DNA of 62,495 nucleotides, the filler included, from Kipferlia bialata (lineage: Eukaryota), in assembly GCA_003568945.1 (NCBI GenBank). It is 5 parts of 5 records of this genome, joined end to end, with 100 filler letters (N's around TTAATTAATTAA, not from the genome) between each part and the next. Parts side by side here need not be neighbours in the genome. Positions count along the whole stretch, not along the records: positions 35,327 to 52,873 come from BDIP01000526.1; 4 more parts are not named here. One strand, given 5' to 3'. The notes below the pieces were generated by a model. It saw only the letters and a program-made list of their open reading frames with translations. It ran no database searches and had not been told where the DNA came from. Each line of letters starts with the position of its first letter. Within the stretch, counting starts at the first letter, position 1. Of this stretch, positions 2,962 through 61,643 are shown piece after piece. The position numbers and the translations under genes are program-made.

Positions 2962-4322
2962 CTACTCAAGGCAATCACCCAGTAACATGTCTGCTGTGAG
3001 CTGCCCCCCTGTCTCCTGCAGCAGAGACAGGTCCAGATGGAGCAGGTACCACTCATAGAAACCCTCCCCGTCCCAGTCTGAATCCATGTCGGAGTCTCCA
3101 TCATGCGTGTAATAGGGAGCAGCACTAATGTGAGTGGACGAACGCGACAGGTCTCTAGCAACTTAGTTAGTAGTTACATGATACATGTATTGATTGAATA
3201 CTATTGAACAAAACATACACGGATGGCCAAGTGATCTGAACCAGACAGAGCTCTGGTCCTATCTGGATCCCCTCAAGGTGGAAGTCCACATCCACCAGGT
3301 GCCTAATCTCATTGGACACCTCGTCAATGACAGATATCTCTCCTTCCGACACACATAGGGTGCTTCTGTTGCCCAGAGATGCAAGAAGGCCCCTGCAGAA
3401 GTAGCGGCCCACATCCAGTGGAACAAGAGCCTCCCACCCGCGTGTGTCACTGAACGATGCTACCCGAAGGCCCTCGGAAAGTGAGCGTGGGGGGGTGTCG
3501 ACAAAGGCAGTGCTGTCTCCAACTGTGATGGCAGTCGCATAGAAGTCGAGTGACCCTAGTGTGAGACGCCGCTAAGTGGAGTAACAACCATACAGGAATG
3601 TAGGGAGACCAAAGACATGGAGTAGTACTCTCAGAGTACAAGCAACAGAAGAGAGCCACCACCTCTACCTGACTGACGAGGTGGGGTGCCAGGTGCCCTC
3701 TCCCAGGTCTCACTCTCAGTGTCAAAGAGCCATAGCCCATCTGCTGAGTAGTGGAGGATCTTCTTACCGGCTGGAGACGCTGAGAGACTCTCACCAGTGG
3801 ACCCATCACACTGTGGGGGGCCAGTTGGGGGATTGCACCGGGTAAAGACGCCTGGCTGTGAGACACGGTAAGTACACTCAGAGAGAGGTCAAGCAAGTGA
3901 AAGGAATATCCCATCGCTATGTTTACAACACCTGTTCCCAGGTCGTACACGTCCGAGGAGAAAGGTGCGGGCTCTGTCAGGTCAAACTCCTCCCTGGTCT
4001 TGAGGTAGAGGCAAGAACCCACTCTGACACAGTCAGGGGGGACAACCCCACCACCTAATTCCGAGTCAGAGTGTATGTCCTCGTCAGGGGGAATGTTGGC
4101 AGCGTCAGAGGTCCTTGTCAGGGTTGGACATCCTTCCTCATACACCACTGTGTAGGCACACATGTCACAGAGGTTGAGGACGGTGTTGTGGGCTATCTGT
4201 ATGAAGTTCCGACTGTGTCCTGAGAGGTTCATCCCCCCTGAACGGTTTCTCACCCTCTCCAGCCACATGAATGAGTCTGTGGCATTGAGCAGATCTGACT
4301 CAGTCAAGAGACGGGGAGACAT
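2962..4322 (-). CDS. Hypothetical protein with few introns, possibly beta-propeller-like
   Basis: Long microsatellite-free ORFs (3447-4388, 3167-3412) and a terminal exon DLSRSSTHISAAPYYTHDGDSDMDSDWDGEGFYEWYLLHLDLSLLQETGGQLTADMLLGDCLE*. Likely start MSPRLLTESDLL at 4322. Internal exon boundaries are uncertain. Confidence 0.55.
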
Positions 4323-5294
4323 TTCCTGAGGGGTGAGGAAATGGGAAAGAGAGGGAGCTGTTCGGTCCAGTATCAGCATAAACAACAAATATGATGGGAA
4401 TAGTAGGGAAGAATGTAGGTGGGATCTCTGAGAGAGCTACGCTTCTCATATCACAAATATACACACAGATTCTCCTAAAAGTGACAGACTCACAAAGGGG
4501 ATTACAGTATGTATAGTATGACCCATAATAAGGGGGTTCTTGTGTCAGACGGAGGAACGGCTATAACGACAACCTGATAGATATGGCCCAAGTGTCAATG
4601 TCCAAACACAACACGTACACGACTCACAACTACAACTTGTAGTCTACAAGCGTCTTGGACCAAGACTCTTGGTCTGTATGGTACTGCTCAACCCTCATCT
4701 AAGTAATTCTTACCTACCTACAGTTGCACCAGCAGCTAGGGGTCGCTGTAAGAGAGTCGTATTGGCCCTACTAACTCTTTAGGGTGACTAACAGCTTGAG
4801 ATTTTCTCTAATCTGTGATTTTAGCGACGTGTAGACCTATGAACAGTGCAGGATATCTTGTCAGGTACTGTAGAGTGACTCTACTACAGTCTACAGTGTA
4901 GACAGTGATACACTCACATATTACTTGAGACGTAATGTGAGTGACAAAATGTGTGAGAGAGTAAGTCACAAGTCACATAGCAATGATCACGAGTGGGGTG
5001 ACAGGCTCTGTGACACAGAGTATTCAAAAGGAGCTTGCAGTCGGAGCAGAGTCACAGTTATGATTCATAACTTATGAACCACACCCTTCCAGGGTAATGT
5101 CTCCCCTCCTGTGTAGTACAACCGACAAATGACAGCTGAGTCTTGAGGCATGTATCTATCTCACAATATACTCCAATCACTAGAGCAACCATCAGGTCCT
5201 CTCTCTTCTCTCTAATCTCCCTCAGCCCGATACCAACTGGCTGTATAGCCTCACTGTCTGTGGGTACTGTGACTGAATCAACAGTGTCCTCTCT

Positions 5295-16254: not shown

Positions 16255-17128
16255 CCTAAGTATGGACATGGTCAGAGGGTCAAAGCAAGGCCTGATTCAG
16301 TATCATAGTAAGATATATACATATGTGTGTATATATACTGAGGGCCTGGTACTATCAGCACAGAGAGGAACTGATATATATTGATACACCTGTGACAATG
16401 ATATATATACTTACCTGGTACTATCAGCCACAGTGACATCCTCTGCACTCTCTGGCTGGGGGGTCTCTGGCTGGGTGTGAGTAGGGAACATATATAGAGA
16501 GAGAATGGCAGAGAGGTAGAGAGAGGACGAGAGAGAGAGAGAGAGAGAAGGGGAGAGAGAGAGAAGGGGAGAGAGAGAGACCTAACAGATCAAACATAAC
16601 ATATTGGATGGGGGATTGAACCAGTGTACATGAGGGAGAGGGAGACAGAAAATGAAACCAATGCAGACATTGTATGGACGTCGTATAAAAGAACTCCTGG
16701 ACTATCATGCATGTGTCAATGCCCACATATATATATACCATATGCCTTAAGAGTCATAAGTCAAGACCCACCTTGACTCTGATGCACGTGTATGATAGAG
16801 AGAGTGGGGAGAGAGAGAGAGAGGGGAGAGAGAGTGACAGAGTGAGAGACACACCTTGACCCTGATGCACGTGTCTGTGTCACACTCCTCCCTGCACACA
16901 GGGCAGACACGCTCATCCTTGCCATCCAGCCATTCACCGAGACACTCTGTGTGGAACACATGCTGGCAGGGGGTGAAGAGGAAGGGGAGGGGGCGGTCTG
17001 GAGATGAGTGTATCAGTAAATTTCGGCACTCACTTAATAGACGGGGTAAATGCCTCCTTATACAAATAATATATTCCAACTGACACGTATGACCCACCTT
17101 CACCGCATATCTGACACTTCAGAGGCAT
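5295..17128 (-). CDS. RING-H2 finger plus armadillo/HEAT-like repeat protein (putative E3 ubiquitin ligase), many short exons
   Basis: Exons 1-2 give MPLKCQICGE|DRPLPFLFTPCQHVFHTECLGEWLDGKDERVCPVCREEC (C3H2C3). Later exons are ARM-like helices (EEVVTAIVQAGAIPLLLAVLDGHADNAE; DLVLVGLGALALLCE; KSMVDSGVLGLLDAVTAAHTDSEAIQAEASKIRQVIEGK*). The span could contain two genes. Confidence 0.7.
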
Positions 17129-35282: not shown

Positions 35283-36123
35283 NNNNNNNNNNNNNNNNNN
35301 NNNNNNNNNNNNNNNNNNNNNNNNNNTCTCTGTGCTCTGAGAAGAAGAGAAGACGAGACCCAAGGCACTCACATCGAGGCCTAACCCAACTCAATCCAAC
35401 TGTAACAGAGGTGGGAATGGAGTGGACCCTTATTCTGTCCAAAAACAAAAACTCTGCCCCCTCAAATTTACTAATCAAATGGTTAATTAATGTTATATGT
35501 CAAGCCTGGCACTGTTACTGCTCTAAAGAGACTTTGAGATGGGAGGACCCGATTCTATGGTGACCCCCGATGAGGAGGTATGTGACACACTGGTTCTGCG
35601 TATATATAGCTTAGGAGTGGGTTTGAGTGGATATTGAGTGGATATGTGTCAACAACTGAATCGATCCGTTGACACCTACGCTGCCAACTTATCCTACTTG
35701 TATTATTGCACATATTATGCGATGCATGGTGTATACCATGTTTTCTGGGTTTAGGTCAATGAATCATTGAGACAAGTATAGAGCGTTTTGGGCATCGTGT
35801 ATATATGTTCTCTCTCCCTCTGACACACAGATCTTATTCACACGGTTATATCCGAGTCCCTTAAGGTAGTACTACTAGACTGCAGAGGGTTTTGCCGCAC
35901 TAATAACACTAAACAACTCATCAATAGCCACATCAGGGGATATATGTGTAATCTATTGAATCCTGGGAGTCCGGAGTCTTCATATCCGGTCATCTCTATA
36001 CCCTGTTGATGGTTCTGGTGGAGTACCCAGTATCTATGACATCTTGCCGTCTGGGTACCGTTACAGTACCACTGTACCCAGTACCCTCCAGCCTCCTAAC
36101 AGAGGTTGTGGAGAAGACGCCGC

Positions 36124-37885
36124 CTATATCCACTTACCCTCTGCGTCCCGTCTCCACTGCCTGGGTGCCTCCCTCTCCACCAGAGCCTCTAGCCTCTGGC
36201 TCTCTCTCCTCCCCACCCTGTTGCTACTGGCCACCACCACTCTGTCCCTCTCCTCTAGGTACTGTGTGTTGTGAGAGTGCACCATCTGTGCAACCCTGCC
36301 AACGGGGGTGTCTACCTCAGGCTGCCTCTCAGCCCTGTCAGCAGTCTCCGCTGCCACTTGGATGTGTCTCTCCAGTCTCTCAACATGGGCTATCTGAGGC
36401 TGAGCAGCGTCCCTCTCAGTAGCTGCCCTCCATACCCTCTGTGCATCAAGTGCCTCTAGGCCTGCCTGTACACGTCCCTCGGCAGTCACTCTCTCCCTCT
36501 CTCTCTCGGCCTGAGCCTCTCTCTCCCTCAGCTCCTGGGCCTCTCTCTCCCTCAGCTCCTGGGCCTCTCTCTCCCTCAGCTCCTGAGCCTCTCTCTCTCT
36601 CCTAGCCATAGCCTCCCTCTCTATCAGCTCCTGAGCCTCTCTCTGCCTCTGGGCCTGAGCCTCTCTCTCTCTCCTAGCCTCAGCCTCTCTCTCTCTCTGG
36701 ACCTGAGCCTCTCTCTGCCTCTGGGCCTTAGCCTCTCTCTCTCTTCTAGCCAGAGCCTCCCTCTCTATCAGCTCCTGAGCCTCTCTCTGCCTCTGGGCCT
36801 GAGCCTTTCTCTCTCTCCTAGCCCTAGCCTCCCTCTCTATCAGCTCCTGAGCCTCTCTCTGCCTCTGGGCCTTAGCCTCTCTCTCTCTCCTAGCCTCTCT
36901 CTCTCTCTGATCAGCAAGCATCTGGGCCACAATCTCTCTCTCTCTCCTAGCCTCAGCCTCTCTCTCCCTCAGCTCCTCAGCCTCTCTCTCCCTCAGCTCC
37001 TCAGCCTCTTGCATGGATGATACCTTCACTATCTCACCATCATCAGAAGCAGCGAGGGCCTGGGGTTAGTATTGTAGCTTACTTCTTCCGACTATACTAT
37101 GTACGTCAATGCCCCTACTGGCATAAGTACAATCCATCTTGGCTGTAGATCCGACATGGGGAGAACTACTCATGTACAGTAAACTGAACTGTATACCGGA
37201 TACACCATACATATTGTTGTAGCTAAACAGCATGTCTCTACAGTATCCAAGTCCACTCTACAGCAAACATGACATATTGGTATACAGTGTATACTATACA
37301 CACAAAGCAGAGAGAGGTCCAGACTGTGGCAGAATCAGTATCGGTTATTGTCTGTCATACGTATATACATTATGTATTACATACATACCTGAGAGGCCAT
37401 TCTCAGTAATAGCTCATTCTATGTATATGAGCCATATACATACCTGAGAGGTGTCCAGAATGTGGCAGTTGGGGAGAGAGATGTCCACTCCGCAGGGACA
37501 GGTGGCAGTTGGGCTAGGGGTGAGGGACATAGAGAGGGAGAGAGGTTGACAATGTGAGGCAGAAACTGATACTGACATCAAAACAGACACAGTGCCGCAA
37601 TATAGTATACTGTACAGTACTTGTGTCAAGGAGAACCGGAGTACACGGTCTGGTATATCATATACTATACCATATACTATATGGTGAAGTACATCCAGTG
37701 TGACCAACACCAAGAATGATACTTGAGGATTATTCGTACTTGAAGAGGCTGCCTCCGTTGTTGACGCATATGCGCTCCAGACACTCACAGTGCACCAGGT
37801 GACCACAAGGAGTACACACCCACTTGGACTGGGTCTCCTTGTGACAGTACGTGCAGTCAAGCGTGATGACACCCGCCTTAGTCAT
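36124..37885 (-). CDS. RING finger plus long E/R/A/Q coiled-coil protein
   Basis: MTKAGVITLDCTYCHKETQSKWVCTPCGHLVHCECLERIC...|PTATCPCG.. followed by the 301-aa ORF rich in REREAQ repeats. It may continue through a short intron to a stop near 36060. Confidence 0.7.
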
Positions 37886-37969
37886 CGCGTAGAGATTCAC
37901 TCGGGCGGGGGGGGGGGGGGGGGGGGGAGGGGGGAGGTCGGGCACAACAGACCCCCCCTCTGACCCCAG

Positions 37970-38380
37970 ATCCACTGGTGCAGCACCAAGTGCCCCACTG
38001 CAGAGGTCAGGGTCTACAACCACCTGTTCAAGTCCCCCAACCCCTACGAGCCCATTGTCGAGGGACAGGGAGAGGCCAAGAAGGCAGAGGCCAAGCCCGA
38101 GGCTGAGGTAGAGGCTGAGGCTGAGGTCGTCAAGGACCCCGCTGACAGGAACGCCTGGCTGAGCGACATCAACCCCGAGTCCATGGTTGTGTACAAGAAC
38201 GTGCCATACACCGGACACGTCGTGACAGACGGCAAGGGAGAGAGAGAGGGAGAGGGAGAGAGGTGCCAGTTCGAGAGGGTGGGATACTTTGTGACCGACC
38301 CCGACTCCGACATGTCCAAGAGAAAGGTCGTGTTCAACAGGATCGTGCCCCTCAGGGTCTCCAAGGCTAAGGGAGAGTAG
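37970..38380 (+). CDS. QARS: Glutaminyl-tRNA synthetase, last exon only (anticodon-binding domain)
   Basis: IHWCSTKCPTAEVRVYNHLFKSPNP...LSDINPESMVV...CQFERVGYFVTDPDSD...VVFNRIVPL matches the GlnRS C-terminus. It is preceded by a CTGACCCCAG acceptor; upstream exons are absent. Confidence 0.8.
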   Translation: MHWCSTKCPTAEVRVYNHLFKSPNPYEPIVEGQGEAKKAEAKPEAEVEAEAEVVKDPADRNAWLSDINPESMVVYKNVPYTGHVVTDGKGEREGEGERCQFERVGYFVTDPDSDMSKRKVVFNRIVPLRVSKAKGE

Positions 38381-38515
38381 GGAAGAAGCAGAATAGATAG
38401 ACACGTGGGTCAAGTAGTAGTGGTAAGGGGTAGATTCTTCTCATTCAGTCATCGAGCGTCTGAGCATCCAATGATCGTATCGTGCCCCCACGCTGATTCG
38501 ACGTTCTTCTTTCCT
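38352..38515 (+). repeat. Diverged direct repeat, copy A
   Basis: TCAGGGTCTCCAAGG..GAGAGTAGGGAAGAAGCAGAATAGATAGACACGTGGGTCA...TAGATTCT..TCATT.AGT.ATCGAGCGT..ATCGTATC.TGCCC.CAC.CTGAT aligns with 43426-43600. Confidence 0.8.
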
Positions 38516-38721
38516 CCTGACCTACTAGATTTGGACATAGAAGGAGGACGTGAGACAGATACATACCGATATGTAATGTCTCGTACAGCGTACTTTCAGC
38601 ATAAACCTCTATAGGCCAACATTCCACAAGAACGGATAGATAAGGCCACTTCAAGGTGATAACATTCATACAAAAACATACATATTATTTACTATCAAAA
38701 CTAGCCCGAAAGGATAGAGGC

Positions 38722-41700
38722 CTATTGGGGCACACTACCAAGCAGCTCTTGGCTGACTCTCTTATAGAAAGCCAGTGACCTGGGGTTCTGGACCTCTTCC
38801 ATGAGGATAAAACACTTCTTATACCAGATCTTCGCCTTTGAAATGCAGGAAGCACCGTCTTCATGGTTTCCATGCTCAATGAGCTCTTTCCCTTGTGAAG
38901 CAAACATGCCACCCAAGTTGCCACAACAATCAGCCATACCCTTCTTCTCCAAAGGGATTGCACCCTCATATACCCTAAGAGCCTTCTGCATGTATCTCAA
39001 AGCACAACCCCACATATGCTGCTCCGCATAGAGGCGGCCCAGGCTGCTCGCAGCTTTTCCATGTGTGTCTGTGAAGAAGGGTAGGTCCCTGCTCATCAGA
39101 AACGCTTCCCACTGGGACGTAAATGCCATTACGAACCACTCCTCCCATCGGGTGTCAGCAGGGTTCTCTCTGTGGTCAGAGCACTGCTTGGACGCCTGCA
39201 AACACCTGGAGCCGAAGTCATGGAGGGTTGAGGCCACCTGGATGAAATCTTGGCACTCTTTGGCAGCTTCACACTCTAACCACAGCAGGCATATAGCCAC
39301 TTCAAGCTTCCCATTCTTCGCCATGGCATTTGCACGGTGTCCCTCAAGACGTGTCTGACTGAAGTAGTCCGGAGAGTTCTGTACGGCTGCGTCCAGTACT
39401 TCTTCAGCATCACCATGCTTCTCCTCCATCTGCAGTGCCACTCCCTTCACTCTGAGAAGGCTCGCACGTGTGCTGGCCGAGAGGTCCTGGAGGTGGTTGT
39501 TGGCCTTATCAAGGAGAAGAGAGGCATCATGAGGCCTCCATTCATCCAGACACGCTTGTGCCGCAGAGCAGAGAAGAATGACAGCCCGCTCAAACTCGGC
39601 TCCCAGGAGGAGATACTCTGCTGCATCAATCCTCTCAAGGGGATCTGAGGACGTGTAGAACCTTCCCTGTAGTTCAGTGCCCAGGCGACAAAACAGAGTT
39701 ACGTCCGCCTCTGCGTTCCAGCCAGGGCTCTGGCGGCGGCGCAGCCTCCCAACAAGGGTGGACACAAACGCACCCACCACTGGTAGAACCACGTATAGCC
39801 GCTTGGCACCAATAAGGTGCTTGGGGCCACTGTCCACCTCCCAGTCCCTCTGTTCCTGCACAAGAGAGTAGTTGACTAGCCGTAGCAGGACATCGCCATC
39901 CTCATCCCCATCTCTTCCAAGCAGTGCCATGAACTCTCGATCCATGGGGCGGAGCACAAGAGTGGCACGATACAGGAACTGCTGACAGTCATCACTTAAA
40001 CACCCCCAGAGCTCTTGCAGAGACAGATCACTCCGTATCGACCTGGTCACGCTCTGAAGGTGGCCATATAGAGAATCATACTCTGTTCTCCCCGGAACAG
40101 CATCTCGGGAAATGAGACTCTCAAGCAAATCAGCTCCTCTGTGGCAATGCAGGAGCTGCTTCTCTGCCAGCCTCCTTCGACAGTCGTATGAGAGTTGCCG
40201 GAGGTGAGGGAACCACTGCATGAGGCGCAGTACAGTATGGGTTCCCAATGGACCAACAGGGATGCACTCCCTGTCTAGGATATCGGGGTTGCGGTACCGA
40301 GTGCTGGCCACTAACACCAGTCTGGCCTGCCTGGCAGAGGAAGATAGGTACTTCCACACATACTCACACTCATGACTCCGCCACTGACCAATCCGCCTAC
40401 CAGCAGGATGCATGAGGGACTCCATGTTGTCAAGGTAGACCACAAGCTGGGGGCCTTTACGCTTCTCTATGATGGTCTCGAGAGCCATTTCAAAGTCTAC
40501 AGTCTCCCACTCACTACGCCCCACCTTCCCTCTCTCCTTGATTTGTCGTTCAAGACATCGTCGCTGCTTTGTAGTCCCATGTCGCTGAATGTAGCAATGT
40601 ACACTCGACGTGATGTCATGCACTAGCCTTCTGGGGCTCATCTCCTTGCACCAGATAGGCAGGAGGGGCAGGGTGTCCTTGTGCCCTCGAGTGTCCCTCT
40701 GAAGCATGAGAGCAGAGTGGTACGCCAGAGCTGTCTTGCCAAGGCCTCCAAGTCCGTGAAACACGAAGACATGTACTGGAGGAAGACTAGTGCGGTGCAA
40801 CCGCCGGACAAGGTGCCGCTCTCGTCTGCGACCGAGGAAGCCAGTGGCCAGGCATACTTCATTCCCGTCTTTGTCTGTCACATATGTACGCTCTGGTGGT
40901 GCCAGTTGGTTGAGTTCTGTGGAGTCACCCAATTCTACCCTCTTGCTCAGGGGCCAGCCACGGCCACCCCGGGAGAATACCACAAGCTGGGCCCAAGCAA
41001 AAGGATACTTTCTGAGGTTATCCCTCACAAGGGGACTCTGACCCTCACTCCCTAACAGCAGCCTACGACGTGCTGCCGCAACTGCCTCGAAGGTGAACAT
41101 TCCCCTGCTGATACCAGCATACACATCGGCTTCTGCGGCAATGCACAGACAATCCGCCACAGTACCATAGTAAGCAACCACATGTGTGATTCCTTGCTGG
41201 TGGAGATGAAAGGCGGTGGTGGTGTCCGTGCCATGGGCTGTGTCGAGTGTGTTTCCGTGACACCCCCCAAGGAAACAGAACTGAGGCGCAAGGGTACAAT
41301 CCCCACTGATAGCTTCCATGAGGTTGTGCACTGAAACACTATCACTGTACCCTTCATCGTCCTCAAACTCTAGGTGACCAGGACGTCCATGTCCTGAGAA
41401 GTGGATTCCGGTGGGTTTGGAGTCTCCAATCGCACCACAGAACTCAGACACAGTCCCAAGATCAGTAAATGACAGGCCCACTTGGGTGTGCAGGGCCTGA
41501 CTGATGCGCCAACTCTCTTCCTCGTAGTTGAGAGGATACTTGCCACTGATCTCGGGTGATGACACATTCACCAGGAGTGACATCGGGGTGGATGCCTTGC
41601 GGAGTGGCCTCTCAAACCCCTTGACACAGCACACAGGGGAGGTACGCACGACATCAACACGTCCAGTCTTGACTACGTACTGATCCTGGATTTGGAGCAA

Positions 41701-42039
41701 CTCCCATGGTAGGCTAAGCACTCTGGCATCACTACTCTCAATAATATAGAGACGCCGGGGTCCCTCTGCAGCTCCTAGGTCCCCATCTAAGTGGAGTATC
41801 TTAGCGAACCACTTTCCGAGCCCTGACGCGCATGCGTTAAGTCTTTCCCTGTCGCTCCCACTCGTTTCCTCCGACACATGCGCCAGAAAGTATTCAAGTG
41901 CCTTTCCAACACGAGACCCAGGTTGGAAGGGTGATCGGTGGAGATGGCTGAACTCTCCTGAACTGACCCTCAACCCACAGGCCTCAGAGGAGATCTTGAA
42001 GTGTCTGTCCTCGGCATCTATACGCCCTCGCCCAACCAT
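38722..42039 (-). CDS. CHAT (caspase-like) protease - STAND/NB-ARC-like NTPase - TPR protein, 1105 aa, intronless
   Basis: CHAT motifs LSLPWELL, IHFSGHG (catalytic His), FLGGCHG (catalytic Cys) and PFAWAQLVVF. NTPase motifs FLGRRRE, Walker A HGLGGLGKT, Walker B VVYLDNME and VASTR. C-terminal TPR-like helices (ASSLGRLYAEQHMWGCALRYMQKALRVYE; CGNLGGMFASQG). Confidence 0.9.
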   Translation of the reverse strand: MVGRGRIDAEDRHFKISSEACGLRVSSGEFSHLHRSPFQPGSRVGKALEYFLAHVSEETSGSDRERLNACASGLGKWFAKILHLDGDLGAAEGPRRLYIIESSDARVLSLPWELLQIQDQYVVKTGRVDVVRTSPVCCVKGFERPLRKASTPMSLLVNVSSPEISGKYPLNYEEESWRISQALHTQVGLSFTDLGTVSEFCGAIGDSKPTGIHFSGHGRPGHLEFEDDEGYSDSVSVHNLMEAISGDCTLAPQFCFLGGCHGNTLDTAHGTDTTTAFHLHQQGITHVVAYYGTVADCLCIAAEADVYAGISRGMFTFEAVAAARRRLLLGSEGQSPLVRDNLRKYPFAWAQLVVFSRGGRGWPLSKRVELGDSTELNQLAPPERTYVTDKDGNEVCLATGFLGRRRERHLVRRLHRTSLPPVHVFVFHGLGGLGKTALAYHSALMLQRDTRGHKDTLPLLPIWCKEMSPRRLVHDITSSVHCYIQRHGTTKQRRCLERQIKERGKVGRSEWETVDFEMALETIIEKRKGPQLVVYLDNMESLMHPAGRRIGQWRSHECEYVWKYLSSSARQARLVLVASTRYRNPDILDRECIPVGPLGTHTVLRLMQWFPHLRQLSYDCRRRLAEKQLLHCHRGADLLESLISRDAVPGRTEYDSLYGHLQSVTRSIRSDLSLQELWGCLSDDCQQFLYRATLVLRPMDREFMALLGRDGDEDGDVLLRLVNYSLVQEQRDWEVDSGPKHLIGAKRLYVVLPVVGAFVSTLVGRLRRRQSPGWNAEADVTLFCRLGTELQGRFYTSSDPLERIDAAEYLLLGAEFERAVILLCSAAQACLDEWRPHDASLLLDKANNHLQDLSASTRASLLRVKGVALQMEEKHGDAEEVLDAAVQNSPDYFSQTRLEGHRANAMAKNGKLEVAICLLWLECEAAKECQDFIQVASTLHDFGSRCLQASKQCSDHRENPADTRWEEWFVMAFTSQWEAFLMSRDLPFFTDTHGKAASSLGRLYAEQHMWGCALRYMQKALRVYEGAIPLEKKGMADCCGNLGGMFASQGKELIEHGNHEDGASCISKAKIWYKKCFILMEEVQNPRSLAFYKRVSQELLGSVPQ

Positions 42040-43425
42040 GTCAGCCAGAGGGAATGCAAGTCAAGTGGGATTCTCCTCTGACTCCGTGGCTACGAGCCTG
42101 GAGGTGGGTAGAGACTGGGGGTAGACACAAACGGATACCAGAGTGTATCTATAGAGTATACGCACCCTGCAAGTGACTGTTTGTAACCTCAGGGAGATGC
42201 TTTCACCCTACAGTGAGTGACCCTATGGGGGAGATACAGACGCTGGGTTTGCACCAGGGGGGGGAGGGGGGATATGAGTGTGGAGTGTATACGGTGGGGA
42301 AAACAGTGGATGATGTGTATATATGGCAGACACAACACATAGAGAGAGAGGGGATGGTGTATACATGGCAGACACAGAGGGAGAGAGAGGATGGTATGTA
42401 TATATATAGCAGGCACATAGAGAGAGAGGGTGTGTGAGTGATGGTATGTATACACAGCAGGCACATAGAGAGAGAGAATGGGAGCCATACTAGTGACCTA
42501 CAGCACTGGAGTGGGTAGAGTGTACACAATACGGAGAATGAAAGAGAGAGACCTTGCGCGGTGGAATGTATGTGGGAGAGAGAGAGAGGAGAAGCATGTG
42601 CGACCTGGGGGGGGGGGCGGGGGAGGCATAGAGAGATGTATAGTATGGTGGTTGAGAGAGAGAGGCGTATATCATGACAAAATCCAGGGGGGGGGGGGAC
42701 ACGGCAGGGAGAAGATAACTTGTCTACGGAGACGGGTGGAATACTGCAGGGGACAGTGTCAGTCACGTACTGAGGGTTCACTATGGAGTACACAGTATAC
42801 CTTGAAGAACCGGGAGTGCAGTCCAGGGCTCCTGGTAGTGTTCTGGAGTCAGTGACGCTGGACTGAAATAGTAGATCCATAGTATTGAAGGGGCAGAGTG
42901 AGACATCGTCGTGTATATCATGGGACAGAGGGAAGAGTGTTGTGTATACAGTGTAGGACAGAGAGAATAGGGGCTGGGGATGGTGTCACCCAAGTCAGGG
43001 GTGATAAGTCGAGATATGGTAATGATATATATATGTCTGTTATTATATGGTAATGATATATATACCCTTGACAGCTCAGTGTATACTAAGGTCAAGCATG
43101 CGATATACAAATACATTTTTGACATCCAGGCTTGTACAAGAAACAAATACACTCATGTAGTCAGTGTGGTTGTGCCCACACTCATGTCTGTAGGACGAAG
43201 AGGGAAAGCCGCCCAATTTCAAACTCTGCCACGAGGCAAGCTCCCTGCAAATATCTCACACTACCGTAGCTCCATAACTCACTTAAAAAATACACGCAAG
43301 AGGACCAAGTGACTCACTTAAGGAGGTGGAGGGACTACCGGTACTGATGCACCCAGCTGATTCATTTATGAGAGGGTCCAAAAACGGATCCCACACATAG
43401 TACAACGATTGGCATTATTCGTCCG

Positions 43426-43600
43426 TCAGGGTCTCCAAGGGAGAGCAGGGAAGAAGCTGAATCGATAGACACGTGGGTCAGGTGGTGTGTGGGATGTGGT
43501 ATAGATTCTAGCTGGCAGATGCATCTCATTTAGTCCATCGAGCGTTCTCCGTTCGTCCAAGCAATCGTATCTTGCCCTCACACTGATGCAATCTCCTCTT
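43426..43600 (+). repeat. Diverged direct repeat, copy B
   Basis: TCAGGGTCTCCAAGGGAGAGCAGGGAAGAAGCTGAATCGATAGACACGTGGGTCA... is homologous to the GlnRS 3' end and flank at 38352-38515. Confidence 0.8.
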
Positions 43601-43615
43601 CGTAGATTCATAGGA

Positions 43616-44187
43616 ATGGCCGCTGCTTCCTTCCTCCTCGCTGTCGTGCTTGTACTGTGCACATTCGTATTGGGGTGCAAGGTAGGGCGGGAATAGGGAT
43701 ATGAGACCGAGAGTTGACCTATCTCTTGTAGATTTAGTACTATCCATCTTATCCCTCCTGACCCCCAGGCCTCTGACTCCTATGAGGACTGCGATGTGTG
43801 CTATGCCATGATGGAGGAGACAGAGCACTACATGGCAACAGGACCCACAGAGGAGGTATGGACACACACAACACTCACTCAATCTAATGTTGATGTGCTC
43901 TGACCCCGCAGGACCTGCTTGCCTTTGTCCAGACTGGGTGCTGCCAGGTGCTCTATGACAATGTGAGGGAGGAGCACTCCGCCACACTCGCCAGTGAGGT
44001 CCAGAGGGACTGCCTCCAGGTGGGTGACACTCTACCATCTCTCTCTCTCTCTCTCTCTCTATATAGTTTCTGCTACCTCTCTTTTTACTCTCAGGTCGGC
44101 TCCAGATATGGCAAGGACCTCATGACCCTTCTCCTGGACGACTACTCCCCAGATGTGGTGTGCTCTGTGGTGGGGGTGTGCCACTAG
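43616..44187 (+). CDS. Secreted saposin-like protein (SAPLIP), 4 exons
   Basis: Signal peptide MAAASFLLAVVLVLCTFVLG, then ...EDCDVCYAMMEETEHYM...|DLLAFVQTGCCQVL...RDCLQ|VGSRYGKDLMTLLLDDYSPDVVCSVVGVCH*. This is the saposin-B cysteine pattern with the terminal P..VC..G.C. Confidence 0.8.
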
Positions 44188-44500
44188 ACAATACCTCAGG
44201 CTTAGCCACTACGAGGATAAGCATATAGCCACCCGTTTAGATACAGTACCCACCTTTAGTGTGTTGGAGTTTGATTAGTAGGCATTGGTAGACTAGTACC
44301 CAATCCCCCCTTAGTTCGTTGCAAGTAGAGGTAACATCATAATAGATATGTCGTCCTTTGTGTCTGGGTTCTCTGGTCAGGGTATCCACTCTGTCTCTCC
44401 CCCCTCTCTCACGGACTAACCCGTAGAGACACGTGGCAAATGACTATGTCCACGAATGCATGATACGGGGGACGGGACTAGACCTACGCGGCATAATCAA

Positions 44501-45119
44501 ATGCCGTTGACAAGGTCAAACACCAAGTGCGGGTATCTCTTCTCCTCTGGTGTCGCAGAGCCATGGTTCGTAGGCCTCTTCTGGCAATGCCCCTCTCTCT
44601 CTCTGTGCACTGACCCCCAGTCATGTCGCTACCGTTCCTGGGTGCGTAGAGTGTGTGTAATAGTGTATGGCTGCATGGGGTTGGTCCCAGTGCTCATATT
44701 CCTATTTCTGCAATATCGACTACTAACCCTGTATATTTGCCACATATATACACACCCTTACACCCTAGGGAAGTTCCAGTGGGCCAAACGAGTGAAGGAT
44801 GCAGCCATGCAGGATGTGGACGGTTAGACTCTCTCTCTCTCTCTGTCAGATTGTCATGCACTGTCTCTAGCTCTCTCATGTCCCCCCCCCCCCCCCCTCG
44901 ACTATTAGTCACTGTCCACTCTCATCTCTCCGTTCACCCTACTGATGACCCCAGGCCAGCCCAACTGGAGCCGTGTTATGATCCTGTGTGACACCACCAG
45001 CCACACAGCCACAGGTACATGCCCTCTCTCCCTTCACCCCACCCCTTCTCTCTCTCCCCCCAGGTCTCCATAATGTCATCATAGGACTACGTTCTCTCTC
45101 TCTGCCCCCCCCCCCCCCC

Positions 45120-45151
<32 letters not shown>

Positions 45152-45458
45152 CCCACTTCTCTCTCTCTCTCTCTCTCTCTCTCCTTCTCTCTTCTCCACT
45201 AGGTGTATTACTCACTCCACAGGTCATCCGGCTGCATATGTAGATATAACGACATACAGGATATATATATACTATATTACATTTTGTATACACTCATGCC
45301 TAGGTCATCCAGCCCTCTGAGGACCAGGCCTCTGCCTATATACATACAGTATATATATATATATATATATGTACTATATATATGTATATATACACTTATA
45401 CCCAGGTCATCCAGCCCTCTGAGGACCAGGCCTCTGCCTATATACATACAGAATACAG

Positions 45459-45491
<33 letters not shown>

Positions 45492-46227
45492 GCTTTATAT
45501 ATATGTATATATTATGTACCTATACCCAGGTCATCCAGCCCTCTGAGGACCAGGCCTCTGCCTGTGACACCATGGAGATACCAGACCTGGTACAGGCCCT
45601 AATCGATGGTACATACAGGATATCTATAGTATATAGTATATAGTATATGTATACACTATAGTAGTGTGACACCATGGAGATACTAGACCTGGTGACAGCA
45701 CTGATAGATGGTACGTATATATATACATATTTTACAAAATGTACAGTATTCATAGAGTGTATAGAGTATGGAGATACCAGACCTCGAACAGGTGCTGATA
45801 GATAGTATGGGGATATATACTGTATGCATGGATATACCATACATGGCTATACCATACTAGTATACATTGATATAGATTGATGAATACACAGTACCACCCA
45901 GACCGCAATCTCAACTTCTTAAGTATCTCTTCCTCTCTCTCTCTCTCTCTCTCTCTTTCTAGACCCTTATATTAGGCTACAATGTCAACNNNNNNNNNNN
46001 NNNNNNNNNNNNNNNNNNNNNNNATATTAGGCTACAATGTCAACTTTTTGGCCAGACTCTCTCTCTCTCTCTCTCTCTCTCTAGACCCTTATATTAGGCT
46101 ACAATGTCAACTTTTTGGCCAATGGGCAGACTGGGAGTGGCAAGACACACACAGTGTTTGGGCCTCCAACAAGTACGACACTCTCTCTCTCTATGTATCA
46201 AGTATGGATATATACTACTATTCCCTA

Positions 46228-56834: not shown

Positions 56835-59457
56835 ATGTCCGAGTCTGCCGTGGAGACCTTCGAGGTGAGTGCATAAGTGGTATATGTACTTCTGAGTGGG
56901 CTGTGGAGCCTCAGGTTGTGAGAATTGGAGAAATGTGATTTGAGTTCCGTTTCCGAGTCCTTTCAGTTGTGTTATCGCCGCGAGGGCGACTCTTTTGGTC
57001 TCAACTTGGAGTTGGTTGCTTTATGCTTCTTAGTTGTTGGTTATAATTGTTGTTGCAGCATGTTTAGTGGCACTGTACCAGATATGTCATCAGCTAGTCT
57101 CACCCCCAGTTCGAGGCTCAGATCAGCCAGCTGATGAGCCTCATCATCAACACCTTCTACTCCAAGAAGGAGGTGTTCCTCAGAGAGCTGATCTCCAACG
57201 CCTCTGATGCTCTGGACAAGATCAAGTATGTGTGTGGTGTATCTACATATATATCTTGTCAGGCATAGTCGTGTAGTGGTGTTGTAGAGTGTGGATACTC
57301 CCTCTTATCTCAGGTACCAGTCCCTCACTGACGAGTCTGCCCTTGCCACCACCGGTGACATGAAGATCCAGATCATCCCCGATCTCGAGAACAAGACCCT
57401 CATCATCCGTGATACCGGTATCGGCATGACCAAGGCCGACCTCATCCAGGTATACACATACCTATATGTATAGTAGATGGCCTCTATTTGAATGTGTCAT
57501 ATAGTCACAGACACAGAGGTTCTTGCCCCCCCCCCCCCCTCCCCCCCACTCATCATTTTCTCAATACTCGTCTGCCCTCTCTTCTTGTATCCTCTCCCTC
57601 ACCCCAGAACCTTGGAACCATCGCCAAGTCCGGCACCAAGCAGTTCATGCAGATGATCAACGAGGGCGCCGACCTCTCCCTCATTGGACAGTTTGGAGTG
57701 GGATTCTACTCTGCCTACCTCGTGGCCCACACTGTGGACGTTGTCTCCAAGAACAACGACGACGGATGCTTCCTCTGGAGGTCCACCGCCGGCGGCTCCT
57801 TCACTGTCGAGCCCGTCGAGCGCGAGGTACACTACTCCCCTCTCTCTCATTTTATTCTCTACACTCTTTTTCATCCGTTTTTGTCTTCAGCGATGACCTC
57901 ACCCTCCAGGACATGAAGCGCGGAACTGAGATCATCCTTCACATGAAGGAGGACCAGATGTCCTACCTCGAGGAGGCCTCCATCAAGGACCTCGTCAAGA
58001 AGCACTCCCAGTTCGTCGGATTCCCCATCGAGCTCATGACCACCAAGGTACAGCCATGCACACACTCTCTCTCTCTCTCTCTCTCTCTTGTATATATATG
58101 TGTGTGTATATCACACCGTTGCTGACCCACAGGAGGAGGAGGAGGAGGTCCCCGTTGAGGAGGAGGACGTCGAGGCCGAGGAGAAGAAGGAGGGCGAGGT
58201 ATGTACATGCACATATATACATATACAGTCATATGTTCTCATACAATAGTGTGTCTCTATATGCATATCTCACCCCCAGGAGGGAGACGCCGAGGAGGCC
58301 TCTGAGGAGGAGGAGGAGGGCGAGGAGAAGAAGCCCAAGACCACCACCATCAAGAAGGAGGTCAAGGAGTTCGAGCTCCTCAACGAGCAGACCGCCATCT
58401 GGACCCGCCCCGCCTCTGAGGTCACCGAGGAGGAGTACGCCGCCTTCTACAAGGTACAGTATAGTGTATATATATTGTGTACACATATAACTACCTGTCA
58501 CTCTATGCCTGACCCCCTCTCACCCTCCAGGAGCTCACCAACGACTGGGAGAAGCACCTTGCCGTCAGGCACTTCAACGTCGAGGGACAGGTCCAGTTCC
58601 GTGGAGTTCTCTACATCCCCGGCCGTGCCCCCAACGACATGTACGTCTCTCTCTCTCTCTCTCTCTCTCTCATGGACACTTGATACTTGATACTCTCTCA
58701 CCCTCCAGGTTCGAGTCCAAGAAGAACTCTCTCTCTCTATATATATACATATATAATCCTTAATGCTCTCCCTTTGCACCCTCTCACCCCCCAGGTTTGA
58801 GTCCAAGAAGAAGCACTCTGGCATCAAGCTCATGGTGAGGAAGGTGTTCATCACCGACGAGCTCGCCGACCTCGTGCCCGAGTGGCTCGGATTCGTCCGC
58901 GGAGTCCTCGACTTCAACGACCTCCCCCTCAACATCTCCCGTGAGACCCTCCAGCAGTCCAAGCTCGTCAAGAAGATCAGGAAGCAGGTCGTCAAGCAGG
59001 TCCTGACCCTCCTGTCCGAGCTCGCTGAGGACACCGAGGTTCGTGGTTCGATTCCCTCTCCTGTTATATTTCTCTTCTGACTCCCAGGAGTACAACAAGT
59101 TCTACAAGCTCTTCGGCCGCAACCTCAAGCTTGGAATCCACGAGGACTCTGCCAACAGGGACAAGCTCGCCAAGCACCTCCGCTACCACTCCACCAAGGT
59201 ATATATTACATATATACATTATATACACCATGTTATTCATATAGAGTGGTGCTGACCCCCAGGCCGACGAGGAGATGACCTCTCTCGACGACTACGTCAC
59301 TCGCATGCCCGAGCACCAGAAGAACATCTACTACCTCACTGGTGAGTCCCGTGCCGAGATTGAGGCCTCTCCCTTCCTGGAGCGCCTTGCTGAGAAGGGC
59401 TTCGAGGTCCTTTACATGGACGAGGCCATCGATGAGTACGCCCTCACCTACCTCAAG
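56835..59457 (+). CDS. HSP90: Cytosolic heat shock protein 90, 3'-truncated by the contig end
   Basis: [48 protein letters not shown]..., [36 protein letters not shown], acidic linker, DLPLNISRE. No signal peptide; 11 exons visible. Confidence 0.97.
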
Positions 59458-59495
59458 GTATATACATATATATACACATACATATATTCCTCATC

Positions 59496-59536
<41 letters not shown>

Positions 59537-59589
59537 CCCCCCCCCNNNNNNNNNNNNNNNNNNNNNNNNNNNNNNNNNNNNNNNNNNNN

Positions 59590-60497: not shown

Positions 60498-61643
60498 GTG
60501 TGTATATGTCTTTCTAACCCTTCAGGACCTATCCTTCCCTGCCCTTGATGACCCCGCTGGCTATGTCTGCACAGGGTTTGCTGGGACAAAGGACAACAAG
60601 GTAATGATATATATATGTATATATGTAGGATAATACATACATACATATTATGCCACTGGCTATGTCTGCACAGGCTTCTCTGGAACAAGGGACAACAAGG
60701 TAATGATATATATATATATATATTAGGATAGTACATACATACATATTGTGCCACTGGCTATGTCTGCACAGGGTTTGCTGGGACAAAGGACAACAAGGTG
60801 TGTGCTTCTATTCTGATGTGTAGTTATATATATATATATACATGTATATACATATATATGTGTGTCTGCACAGGCTTCGCTGGAACAAAGGACAACAAGG
60901 TTATGTCTTTATCTCTGTATAGACTGTTCCCCATCTTTCACCTGTGTCCTATTCACTGTCTTTCCCTACATATCTTGGATTGGAAAAATTGTTCACTCAT
61001 TTAGTGCAAGTGTATCTTCTCTCACCCCAGGTCTCCATGCTTCAGGACATCCCCTTTCTCTCTCTCTCTCTCTCTCTTATATGTATATTTACATATATAT
61101 TTATCCATATATACTTACCCCCAGGTCTCCATGCTGCAGGACATCGAGGCCGGTAGACCCACAGAGATTGGCACACTCAATGAGGCCATTTGCAAGGAGG
61201 GGAAGGTATGGGAATACGTGTCAAGTATCTGCACTTGAAGTACACATATTTGAGTTGTCTTGATGCATATATGTATACTCATCCTCCAGGCCCTTGGTGT
61301 GCCCACGCCACTCAATGCATTCGCTTCCCAGGTCATCAGGTACACAAGTGTATCAATATATAGATATATTATATAGATGTATTATCGATATACACATACT
61401 CCCTCGTATACTCTCTCATTGTCCCAGGTTATCAGGTACACTGGTATACTATATATATTTTTGATTAATAATAGGTATAGTCTCTCGTATACTCTCTCAC
61501 TGTACTCATCCCAGGGGCAAGGAGCTCATACTCACATATATACATGGATATGTAACTATACTATTTACATATATCCATATTCTCTTTTGGGTAATTGTTG
61601 ACTTACCCCCAGGGGCAAGGAGGTCTGCAACTCCCTGGCGTAA
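59755..61643 (+). CDS. panE: 2-dehydropantoate 2-reductase (ketopantoate reductase, PanE/ApbA family), C-terminal 7 exons
   Basis: DIENIIWQKLLANASTNCVAAMTG|...LAEEVAQVARAK|...NK|VSMLQDIEAGRPTEIGTLNEAICKEGK|ALGVPTPLN.. contains the ApbA_C motifs WxKLxxN, SMLQD and TEI..LN. Confidence 0.88.

Follow-up and report, generated by a model that had tools for sequence, protein, structure and literature searches.

Within a 62,495-nt joined stretch of Kipferlia bialata DNA (assembly GCA_003568945.1; hereafter the window, whose positions are used for all coordinates), an uninterrupted coding sequence on the minus strand (38722..42039) encodes a protein of 1,105 amino acids, P0001, that is predicted to combine a CHAT protease, a STAND ATPase and TPR-like repeats in a single chain. 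We favor, at a probability of about 0.5, the interpretation that this is a single-copy, spliced host gene, acquired whole from a bacterium and encoding an NLR-like alarm protease. A first-pass annotation had described the locus as an intronless, horizontally acquired gene for a self-contained sensor-oligomeriser-protease; it mentioned neither the direct repeat that flanks the gene nor the loss of the GxP and winged-helix His motifs reported below.

Transcription and splicing of the P0001 gene

Contigs of four sequencing runs were placed on the window at 90% and 80%. Run X1 is DNA, and run X2, guessed to be RNA, behaves as RNA, in that it contains spliced joints and leaves bins of spacer or intron sequence (38449-38647, 42429-42627 and 43026-43622) at zero depth. 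A 3,346-nt X2 contig, which shows no mismatches and matches the gene without a single difference across 38824-42096, crosses two joints (42800>42208, 593 nt, and 42165>42098, 68 nt), the former anchored by only 30 letters at its shorter end and the latter by 42. RNA contigs stop short of the final ~100 nt of the coding sequence, to which no significance is attached. Both introns are GT..AG on the minus strand and, because an in-frame TGA (42061-42063) separates them from the ATG, they are assigned to the 5′ untranslated region (UTR); the same stop codon rules out an N-terminal coding extension through the upstream exons. The 130-nt spliced leader, counted from 42830, contains no ATG, and a separate contig of depth 2.2 spanning 42823-42984 indicates that the transcript may start further upstream. 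The P0001 gene is thus a transcribed, spliced host gene, a point that we regard as practically certain, and the term intronless applies to its coding sequence alone. The two spliceosomal introns speak strongly against a bacterial contaminant, since such DNA cannot have them. In the small runs from a second sample, X3 and X4 (2.8 and 0.8 million letters), the saposin-like gene to the right of the locus is present and the P0001 gene is not, an absence that carries no weight in runs of this size.

The reading frame itself is as first annotated, and the positions given for the His, Cys, Walker A and Walker B motifs agree with codons counted from the ATG at 42039. The interval 39001-42000 is free of poly-G/C, (TA)n and (AG)n tracts, as had been noted for the last two, while most kilobases of the window have microsatellites. 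The protein has entries in NCBI, UniRef, nr and EukProt. The features of the gene are as follows.

42801..42830, minus: 5′UTR exon 1, RNA-supported, 30 nt
42208..42800, minus: 5′UTR intron 1, 593 nt, GT..AG, rich in host-type microsatellites (RNA joint)
42166..42207, minus: 5′UTR exon 2, 42 nt (RNA contig)
42098..42165, minus: 5′UTR intron 2, 68 nt, GT..AG (RNA joint)
42040..42097, minus: 5′UTR portion of exon 3, with the in-frame TGA (sequence)
38722..42039, minus: coding sequence, uninterrupted, 1,105 aa (single-frame open reading frame)
40960..42006, minus: predicted CHAT module, aa ~12-360, an alpha+beta pseudo-protease half and a caspase-like half (Pfam CHAT, model)
41389..41391, minus: putative catalytic His217 (HFSGHG), His in 106/108 relatives
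41260..41262, minus: putative catalytic Cys260 (GGCHG), Cys in 104/108 relatives
40270..40872, minus: predicted STAND nucleotide-binding domain (NBD), aa 390-590 (Pfam, motifs, fold match)
40732..40755, minus: Walker A, GLGGLGKT (codon positions)
40420..40437, minus: Walker B, YLDNME (codon positions)
39670..40269, minus: predicted helical domain 1 (HD1) and winged-helix domain (WHD), aa 591-790 (model, fold matches)
40135..40152, minus: GHPR (GxP) site, which reads LHCHRG, Gly and Pro absent (alignments)
39784..39786, minus: Leu752 at the conserved winged-helix His, which is His in 106/108 relatives and nearly invariant in a second alignment
38725..39669, minus: divergent TPR-like helical repeats, aa 791-1105, predicted sensor (helical hairpins in the model)

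Integration into the host genome

The locus lies in a stretch without N (35327-45989), between spliced genes as previously claimed. A 4,024-nt DNA unitig of run X1 (38267-42264, depth 534) extends from the last exon of a glutaminyl-tRNA synthetase (GlnRS)-type gene through the whole reading frame, and a second unitig (1,385 nt, 42687-44029) connects exon 1 with the saposin-like gene. Depth in four flanking unitigs is 424-475, the P0001 unitig being 12-26% higher, which is host-like, with the qualification that X1 may be the assembly's own source.

37967..38380, plus: left neighbor, last exon of the GlnRS-type gene, convergent (PF20974, E 4e-11; RNA contigs)
43616..44187, plus: right neighbor, 117-aa saposin-like gene with three introns, divergent (spliced in X2-X4; SapB_2, E 4e-5)
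38349..38497, plus: direct repeat copy A, the final GlnRS codons and the spacer behind them (repeat search)
43423..43587, plus: direct repeat copy A′, directly before the saposin-like gene, ATG at 43616 (repeat search)

The two copies of this ~150-bp direct repeat, the only ones of their type within the window, are 72% identical (E 6e-18), with an alignment score of 171 against a mean of 37 and a maximum of 52 in 100 shuffles. The repeat that brackets the P0001 gene is likely to be an insertion scar or target-site duplication; on the simplest reading, an ancestral GlnRS-spacer-saposin site would have taken up an insert of ~4.9 kb, with duplication of the spacer. No operon context was seen around the gene, and sigma-70 signals amount to 1 site against 4.2 expected.

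Bacterial relatives and phylogeny

To place the protein among its relatives, we relied on searches at several length ranges. The near-length search returned 180 matches, of which the 119 listed besides the query show 27-36% identity over up to 99% of the length of P0001. Those listed with an organism name (17) are all bacteria, and no EukProt entry occurs among the 119, though EukProt holds P0001 itself. The all-length search, which alone covered proteins of >1,934 aa, returned 897 matches; the best identities among the 150 listed (46-48%) fall on short CHAT pieces only. The 19 rows looked up from among the closest or most identical derive from metagenome sources, and none of the 26 matches of a shorter-length search is eukaryotic by name or source. 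No eukaryotic orthologue was thus found among the matches listed. In GTDB, a collection without eukaryotes, 74 loci were found in Acidobacteriota, Planctomycetota, Pseudomonadota, Entotheonella, Chloroflexota, Bacteroidota and others, and of ten Atlas clusters, nine consist entirely of bacterial CHAT-ATPase-TPR proteins and one is 67% bacterial.

We aligned 108 hand-picked, near-full-length relatives. By our own profiles, which give approximate classes, and with some rows cut by contig ends, their N-termini carry TIR (62), SIR2 (17), another domain (15) or none (14), such that about 79 of the 108 bear a TIR or SIR2 domain. P0001 has no such NADase domain, and a tblastn search with 254 relatives for a SIR2 or TIR remnant upstream of the ATG gave nothing significant outside the reading frame.

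The nearest relative, P0002, is encoded by a Bacteroidota metagenome-assembled genome (MAG; locus L012) and is 35% identical over 72% of the length. A FastTree phylogeny of the 225 of 302 rows covering 75% of the core places P0001 in a 20-row, mostly SIR2-bearing group with a Bacteroidota MAG protein as sister, and IQ-TREE under a mixture model recovers the same sister in a quick 56-row tree (support 87) and a careful 30-row tree (93/93). In the latter, the ten-row group around P0001, again mostly SIR2-bearing, is supported at 95/96, and the P0001 branch is long (1.96; range across trees 1.5-2.0). Trees of the CHAT or STAND domain alone both place P0001 near the mostly SIR2-bearing group, although the STAND-only sister differs. 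An approximately unbiased (AU) test does not reject a placement outside the ingroup (p 0.3); either position lies between bacterial groups. We therefore did not accept the Bacteroidota sister (SH-like supports 99, 87 and 93; 93/93 in the careful tree) as donor, given the long branch, the different STAND-only sister and the AU result, and because of the latter neither a donor nor a loss of the NADase domain is established.

Since the relatives found are only bacterial, the gene was likely taken from a bacterium. It is linked to host genes and expressed in the manner of the host, and in the trees it is nested among bacterial homologues, with no other eukaryote among the matches listed that name an organism. 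None of the refuting conditions named with the first-pass annotation was borne out. With bridged junctions, host-like depth, bacterial kin and splicing, the horizontal acquisition first proposed from the DNA is well supported, and we consider a bacterial origin very probable.

Domain architecture and predicted fold

Pfam matches P0001 with CHAT at aa 93-354 (E 2e-4; 21.5 bits, cut-off 24 bits), AAA_16 at aa 401-541 (E 2e-4) and, weakly, a single TPR; each of the three falls below its curated cut-off. Searches of PDB sequences with P0001 yielded TPRs only or the P-loop only. Structural support for the layout comes from an AlphaFold2 model built on a 109-row alignment (pLDDT 81.8, pTM 0.78), which, together with the 180 full-length matches, bears out the CHAT-STAND-TPR arrangement.

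Residues 2-361 of the model superpose on Csx29/TPR-CHAT (8d9f_A; Z 21.2, root-mean-square deviation [RMSD] 3.6, 294 aligned), separase (5fc3_B; Z 20.4) and SAVED-CHAT (Z 19.5), and are thus predicted to adopt the CHAT fold, a caspase-like domain after a pseudo-protease half, equipped with a putative His/Cys dyad. P0001 does not look like a separase: its predicted protease is N-terminal and followed by STAND, not C-terminal, and structural identity is 17%. Residues 387-784 match a resistosome (9h2l_A; Z 19.9, RMSD 5.0, 313 aligned) and CED-4 (8jol_B; Z 17.3), consistent with a STAND protein in which a P-loop NBD with Walker A, Walker B and sensor 1 precedes helical and winged-helix domains. The sensor-1 STRY and a GFxGRR motif are present, and the columns of His217, Cys260, Walker A, Walker B and sensor 1 are conserved in 104-108 of the 108 relatives. 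In subclade profiles, generic AAA_16 is the only good match in 46 of 48 cores, with NACHT (5), NB-ARC (4) and nSTAND5 (14) all weak. The C-terminal repeats resemble the LGN TPR (3ro2_A; Z 16.6, RMSD 12.8), and a sequence search with this region alone recovered, out of 3,593 candidates, nothing but P0001 itself. The model thus predicts effector, STAND and repeat sensor in a single chain, an NLR-related layout.

Alteration of two switch motifs

At the GxP site the relatives are nearly uniform (Pro in 108/108, Gly in 107/108, GHPR in 105/108), and P0001 shows no Gly-x-Pro there in either of two alignments. DNA and RNA contigs match the window both here and at Leu752, and the two losses are therefore not assembly errors. 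By alignment, P0001 appears to lack two marks of STAND NTPases, the GxP motif and the winged-helix (MHD-type) His; we equate Leu752 with the MHD/H443 His from motif position and the model, rather than from a residue-level alignment. According to the accessible portion of PMC6713354, ADP is held in plant NLRs by GLPL and MHD, and changes in the latter are mostly autoactivating; a WHD His-to-Leu substitution activates (hyperactivates) NLRC4 and makes bNACHT16 toxic, as stated in the available part of 10.1101/2022.07.19.500537. With its ADP-lock motifs altered, P0001 would not be a standard STAND switch.

Composition and selection in the host

The observed/expected CpG ratio of the P0001 gene (0.49) lies below that of all 50 bacterial relatives compared (0.73-1.46) and within the range of four host coding stretches (0.30-0.74; a repetitive fifth has 0.12), the window as a whole having 0.39. 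The share of CGN among Arg codons (0.58) and NCG use (0.14) fall between host and bacteria. In CHAT, P0001 and its nearest relative share 0.73 identity at conserved columns against 0.27 at variable ones, and for CHAT and NBD the conserved columns exceed the variable ones about threefold. Under simulated neutral substitution, the reading frame stayed open in 24 of 500 runs at 2% and in 0 of 500 at 5%. These figures suggest that purifying selection has likely acted on the gene in the host, although part of the conserved-column excess could date from its bacterial phase.

Bacterial family and comparison with known systems

The bacterial relatives (P0002-P0132; loci L012, L032, L034, L044 and L001, for example) include proteins with SIR2 or TIR plus CHAT, that is, two effectors per chain, on a STAND-TPR scaffold. 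This two-effector family occurs in Acidobacteriota, Planctomycetota, Entotheonella and others and is a candidate defense system, a role suggested by its TIR and SIR2 effectors. Mobile, toxin-antitoxin or restriction genes lie near 9 of 23 bacterial loci, a count without a control set. The Entotheonella homologue (L044:7134-11995) ends early and is followed by a separate 273-aa TPR frame, with an integrase nearby, which may reflect a split sensor or a frameshift; the gene is also in pieces at L028, L031, L038, L040, L043, L045, L050 and L055-L057. We found no dedicated study of such TIR/SIR2 plus CHAT STAND-TPR proteins in the literature searched.

P0001 is colinear with these bacterial [TIR/SIR2/none]-CHAT-STAND-TPR proteins and shares their His/Cys, Walker and sensor motifs. 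It differs from them in being eukaryotic, with a spliced 5′UTR, in lacking TIR or SIR2 and the GxP and WHD His motifs, and in the divergence of its TPRs, which on their own match no relative. Unlike Avs and bNACHT proteins, P0001 is eukaryotic, and it matches no Avs or NACHT model of PADLOC or NCBIfam, which together return no family beyond one weak TPR match; the main text of the paper on those defense proteins makes no mention of CHAT.

Among eukaryotes, it resembles the fungal HET-Q2-like CHAT or S8 protease NLR-like proteins in carrying a protease directly in an NLR-like chain; the part of PMC8851545 available reports that TPR-CHAT cleaves gasdermin and that fungal NLR-like proteins bear proteases. 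In contrast to the fungal case, no fungal sequence occurs among the matches listed and no gasdermin was seen beside the P0001 gene by Pfam on exon fragments of the window, and the two are likely of independent origin. The STAND core resembles the structures of CED-4, Apaf-1, Sr35, RPP1 and NRC (Z 14-20, 11-15% identity), and proximity activation as in the CED-4/CED-3 and Apaf-1/caspase-9 apoptosomes is predicted for P0001. Unlike apoptosomes and resistosomes, it would fuse protease and NTPase, with CHAT rather than a classical caspase and TPR rather than WD40 or LRR. With Csx29/TPR-CHAT (Craspase), SAVED-CHAT and separase it shares the predicted two-half CHAT fold (aa 2-361), whereas those proteins are gated by RNA, cyclic nucleotide or securin, lack STAND and are 9-18% identical to P0001. 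The EACC2-caspase module, as described in the accessible text of PMC8195603, resembles the N-terminal alpha+beta and caspase module of P0001 by description only.

Neighboring genes and other features of the window

The saposin-like gene stands head-to-head with the P0001 gene. Its product has a signal-like N-terminus and six Cys, and its three introns are spliced in three runs; we take it to be a candidate amoebapore-type antibacterial or lysosomal protein. By analogy with fungal gene pairs it was considered as a protease substrate, a candidate set aside in view of its hydrophobic, signal-like start and of an adjacency explained by the insertion site. A 2,303-nt RNA contig (44092-44823, plus) covers saposin exons, continues past the stop through 44640 and crosses a further intron (44642-44768), representing either a long spliced 3′UTR or read-through to the next gene.

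On the other side, RNA letters preceding the GlnRS last exon (a loose end in X2, relating to 37894-37967) have no match in the window, and DNA unitigs break at a poly-G tract (37903-37943) left of that exon. This may reflect an assembly misjoin or an upstream exon that is distant or finely split; the P0001 junctions are untouched. Further left (36124-37900, minus), two exons have no Pfam match, one with RING-like Cys/His (37730-37900) and one of 301 aa built of EREA-type tandem repeats (8 residues, 24-nt unit), and 37100-37900 has no real RNA cover in X2.

Elsewhere, a second long microsatellite-free frame (3447-4436, minus; 329 codons stop to stop, no Pfam family) has a composition like that of the P0001 gene (third-position GC 0.58, CpG 0.42) and could be another acquired or retroposed gene. 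An intron-rich cytosolic HSP90 gene occupies 57288-59544 (plus); near 58700, the start of a short exon is duplicated in tandem, perhaps through an assembly artefact or as an alternative acceptor. Pfam on exon fragments also identified RING-H2 (16750-17118, minus), a weak low-molecular-weight phosphatase (542-814, plus) and the C-terminal domain of ketopantoate reductase (61005-61235, plus).

Discussion

In the mechanism that we propose, the gene would have arrived as one intronless coding sequence with a ~150-bp target-site duplication, and a host promoter and spliced leader would have been gained later. The TIR or SIR2 NADase would have been lost, or the donor form would have been NADase-free; with the NADase absent, the protease would be the only remaining effector. 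On recognition of a ligand or partner by the TPRs, the STAND domain would form an oligomer in which the CHAT domains are clustered; activated by proximity, these would then cut a host protein. The ADP lock would be weak, and the off state would probably be held by the TPRs or a bound host partner, not by nucleotide exchange; CED-4 is a model of an off state held by a bound partner. The trigger would most likely be a virus or a bacterial intruder.

The components of this proposal differ in strength. Judging from its residues, P0001 is somewhat more probably an active protease than an inactive one, gating of that protease by sensor and oligomer is an even bet, and a role in defense or cell death is less likely than not. 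The self-contained sensor-oligomeriser-protease of the first annotation is hence plausible in outline, with the reservations that the NADase of its kin is missing and the ADP-lock motifs are altered. The most specific form of the idea, a guard-type immune or suicide receptor of a free-living protist in which apoptosome and caspase form one chain, the NADase has been dropped, a spliced leader has been gained, exchange of the ADP-lock residues keeps STAND permanently primed and only a host partner on re-tuned TPRs holds it off, is unlikely as a complete description.

Several observations weigh against an alarm protease. No P0001 paralogue was found in the protein searches, and immune receptors usually expand. 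The absence of an N-terminal domain is shared by 14 of the 108 relatives, the AU test tolerates a placement outside the ingroup, and GxP loss may cripple the switch instead of priming it. P0001 retains 78/105 conserved positions in CHAT, 50/63 in NBD, 33/53 in HD1/WHD and 10/21 in TPR, fewer than all compared relatives except in NBD, where 5 of 108 are as low. PADLOC (2023 library) returns 0 families for P0001 and matches its relatives via TIR, SIR2 or TPR parts only, and no shared partner or gasdermin was found in 145 neighbor frames of 23 bacterial loci (5 of 150 omitted).

A rather unlikely but substantial alternative is that the acquired gene has been repurposed: STAND would gate nothing, and the protein would serve outside defense as a housekeeping protease or scaffold, either constitutive or targeted by its TPRs. 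The loss of GxP and WHD His beside a retained catalytic dyad, the faster erosion of HD1/WHD and TPR than of CHAT, the single copy and the presence of the transcript in the one RNA run that contains the gene all agree with this scenario. Yet a dead NTPase need not keep Walker A, Walker B, sensor 1 and GFxGRR, all of which persist, as does the whole architecture over a branch of 1.96.

The low retention, lowest among the relatives, can also be read, together with two lost invariant motifs, the missing NADase and the singleton status, as the mark of a relic, still transcribed, that is becoming a pseudogene because selection on it is weak or has lately been relaxed. We consider this improbable: 1,105 codons have stayed open despite host-like CpG loss, as no simulated frame did at 5% and few at 2%, all catalytic residues are kept, the spliced leader lacks an upstream ATG and the fold is predicted with confidence.

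Less probable still is an old eukaryotic gene, for example one related to separase or from an early transfer, whose kin are lost or unsampled. The match of the CHAT half to separase, the long branch and the Atlas cluster that is 67% bacterial would fit such a history, and a distant eukaryotic match may sit among the 60 of 180 and 747 of 897 matches outside those listed; against this, identity is 17% to separase and up to 49% to bacterial CHAT domains, P0001 is colinear with bacterial proteins over nearly its entire length from a coding sequence without introns, and both of its possible tree positions fall between bacterial groups. Finally, prey or contaminant bacterial DNA misjoined into a host scaffold, which a bacterial-type coding sequence without introns or microsatellites, the slightly raised depth and the possible use of X1 in the assembly might suggest, is largely refuted by the two introns removed in RNA, the unitigs bridging both sides, CpG depletion beyond every bacterial relative compared, and the lack of operon context and of sigma-70 signals.

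The components of the favored reading, an acquired NLR-like alarm protease, have precedents. The available portions of the sources describe all-in-one CHAT NLRs in multicellular bacteria (10.1101/2020.01.06.895854), repeated NLR transfers from bacteria to eukaryotes, for which deep trees are the main source (10.1101/2022.07.19.500537), STAND proteins bearing TIR plus caspase (PMC8195603) and, likewise in print, caspase-fused bacterial relatives of Apaf-1. No literature on the P0001 gene or on a protist CHAT-STAND-TPR protein was found in a search that left out most subscription journals and all supplements (for example, the tables of PMC12803255, PMC8195603 and PMC7539657). The architecture and bacteria-to-eukaryote transfers of NLRs thus have known parallels, and what is new is the present instance with its altered switch.

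The locus offers a whole-gene transfer with legible steps, namely a flanking duplication, introns in the 5′UTR only, host-like CpG loss and no NADase. Two of its switch motifs have changed naturally, in one case by what matches a known hyperactivating substitution, and its relatives draw attention to a bacterial family whose chains each bear two effectors. The locus touches on the open questions of how unicellular eukaryotes detect infection and whether regulated suicide occurs in them.

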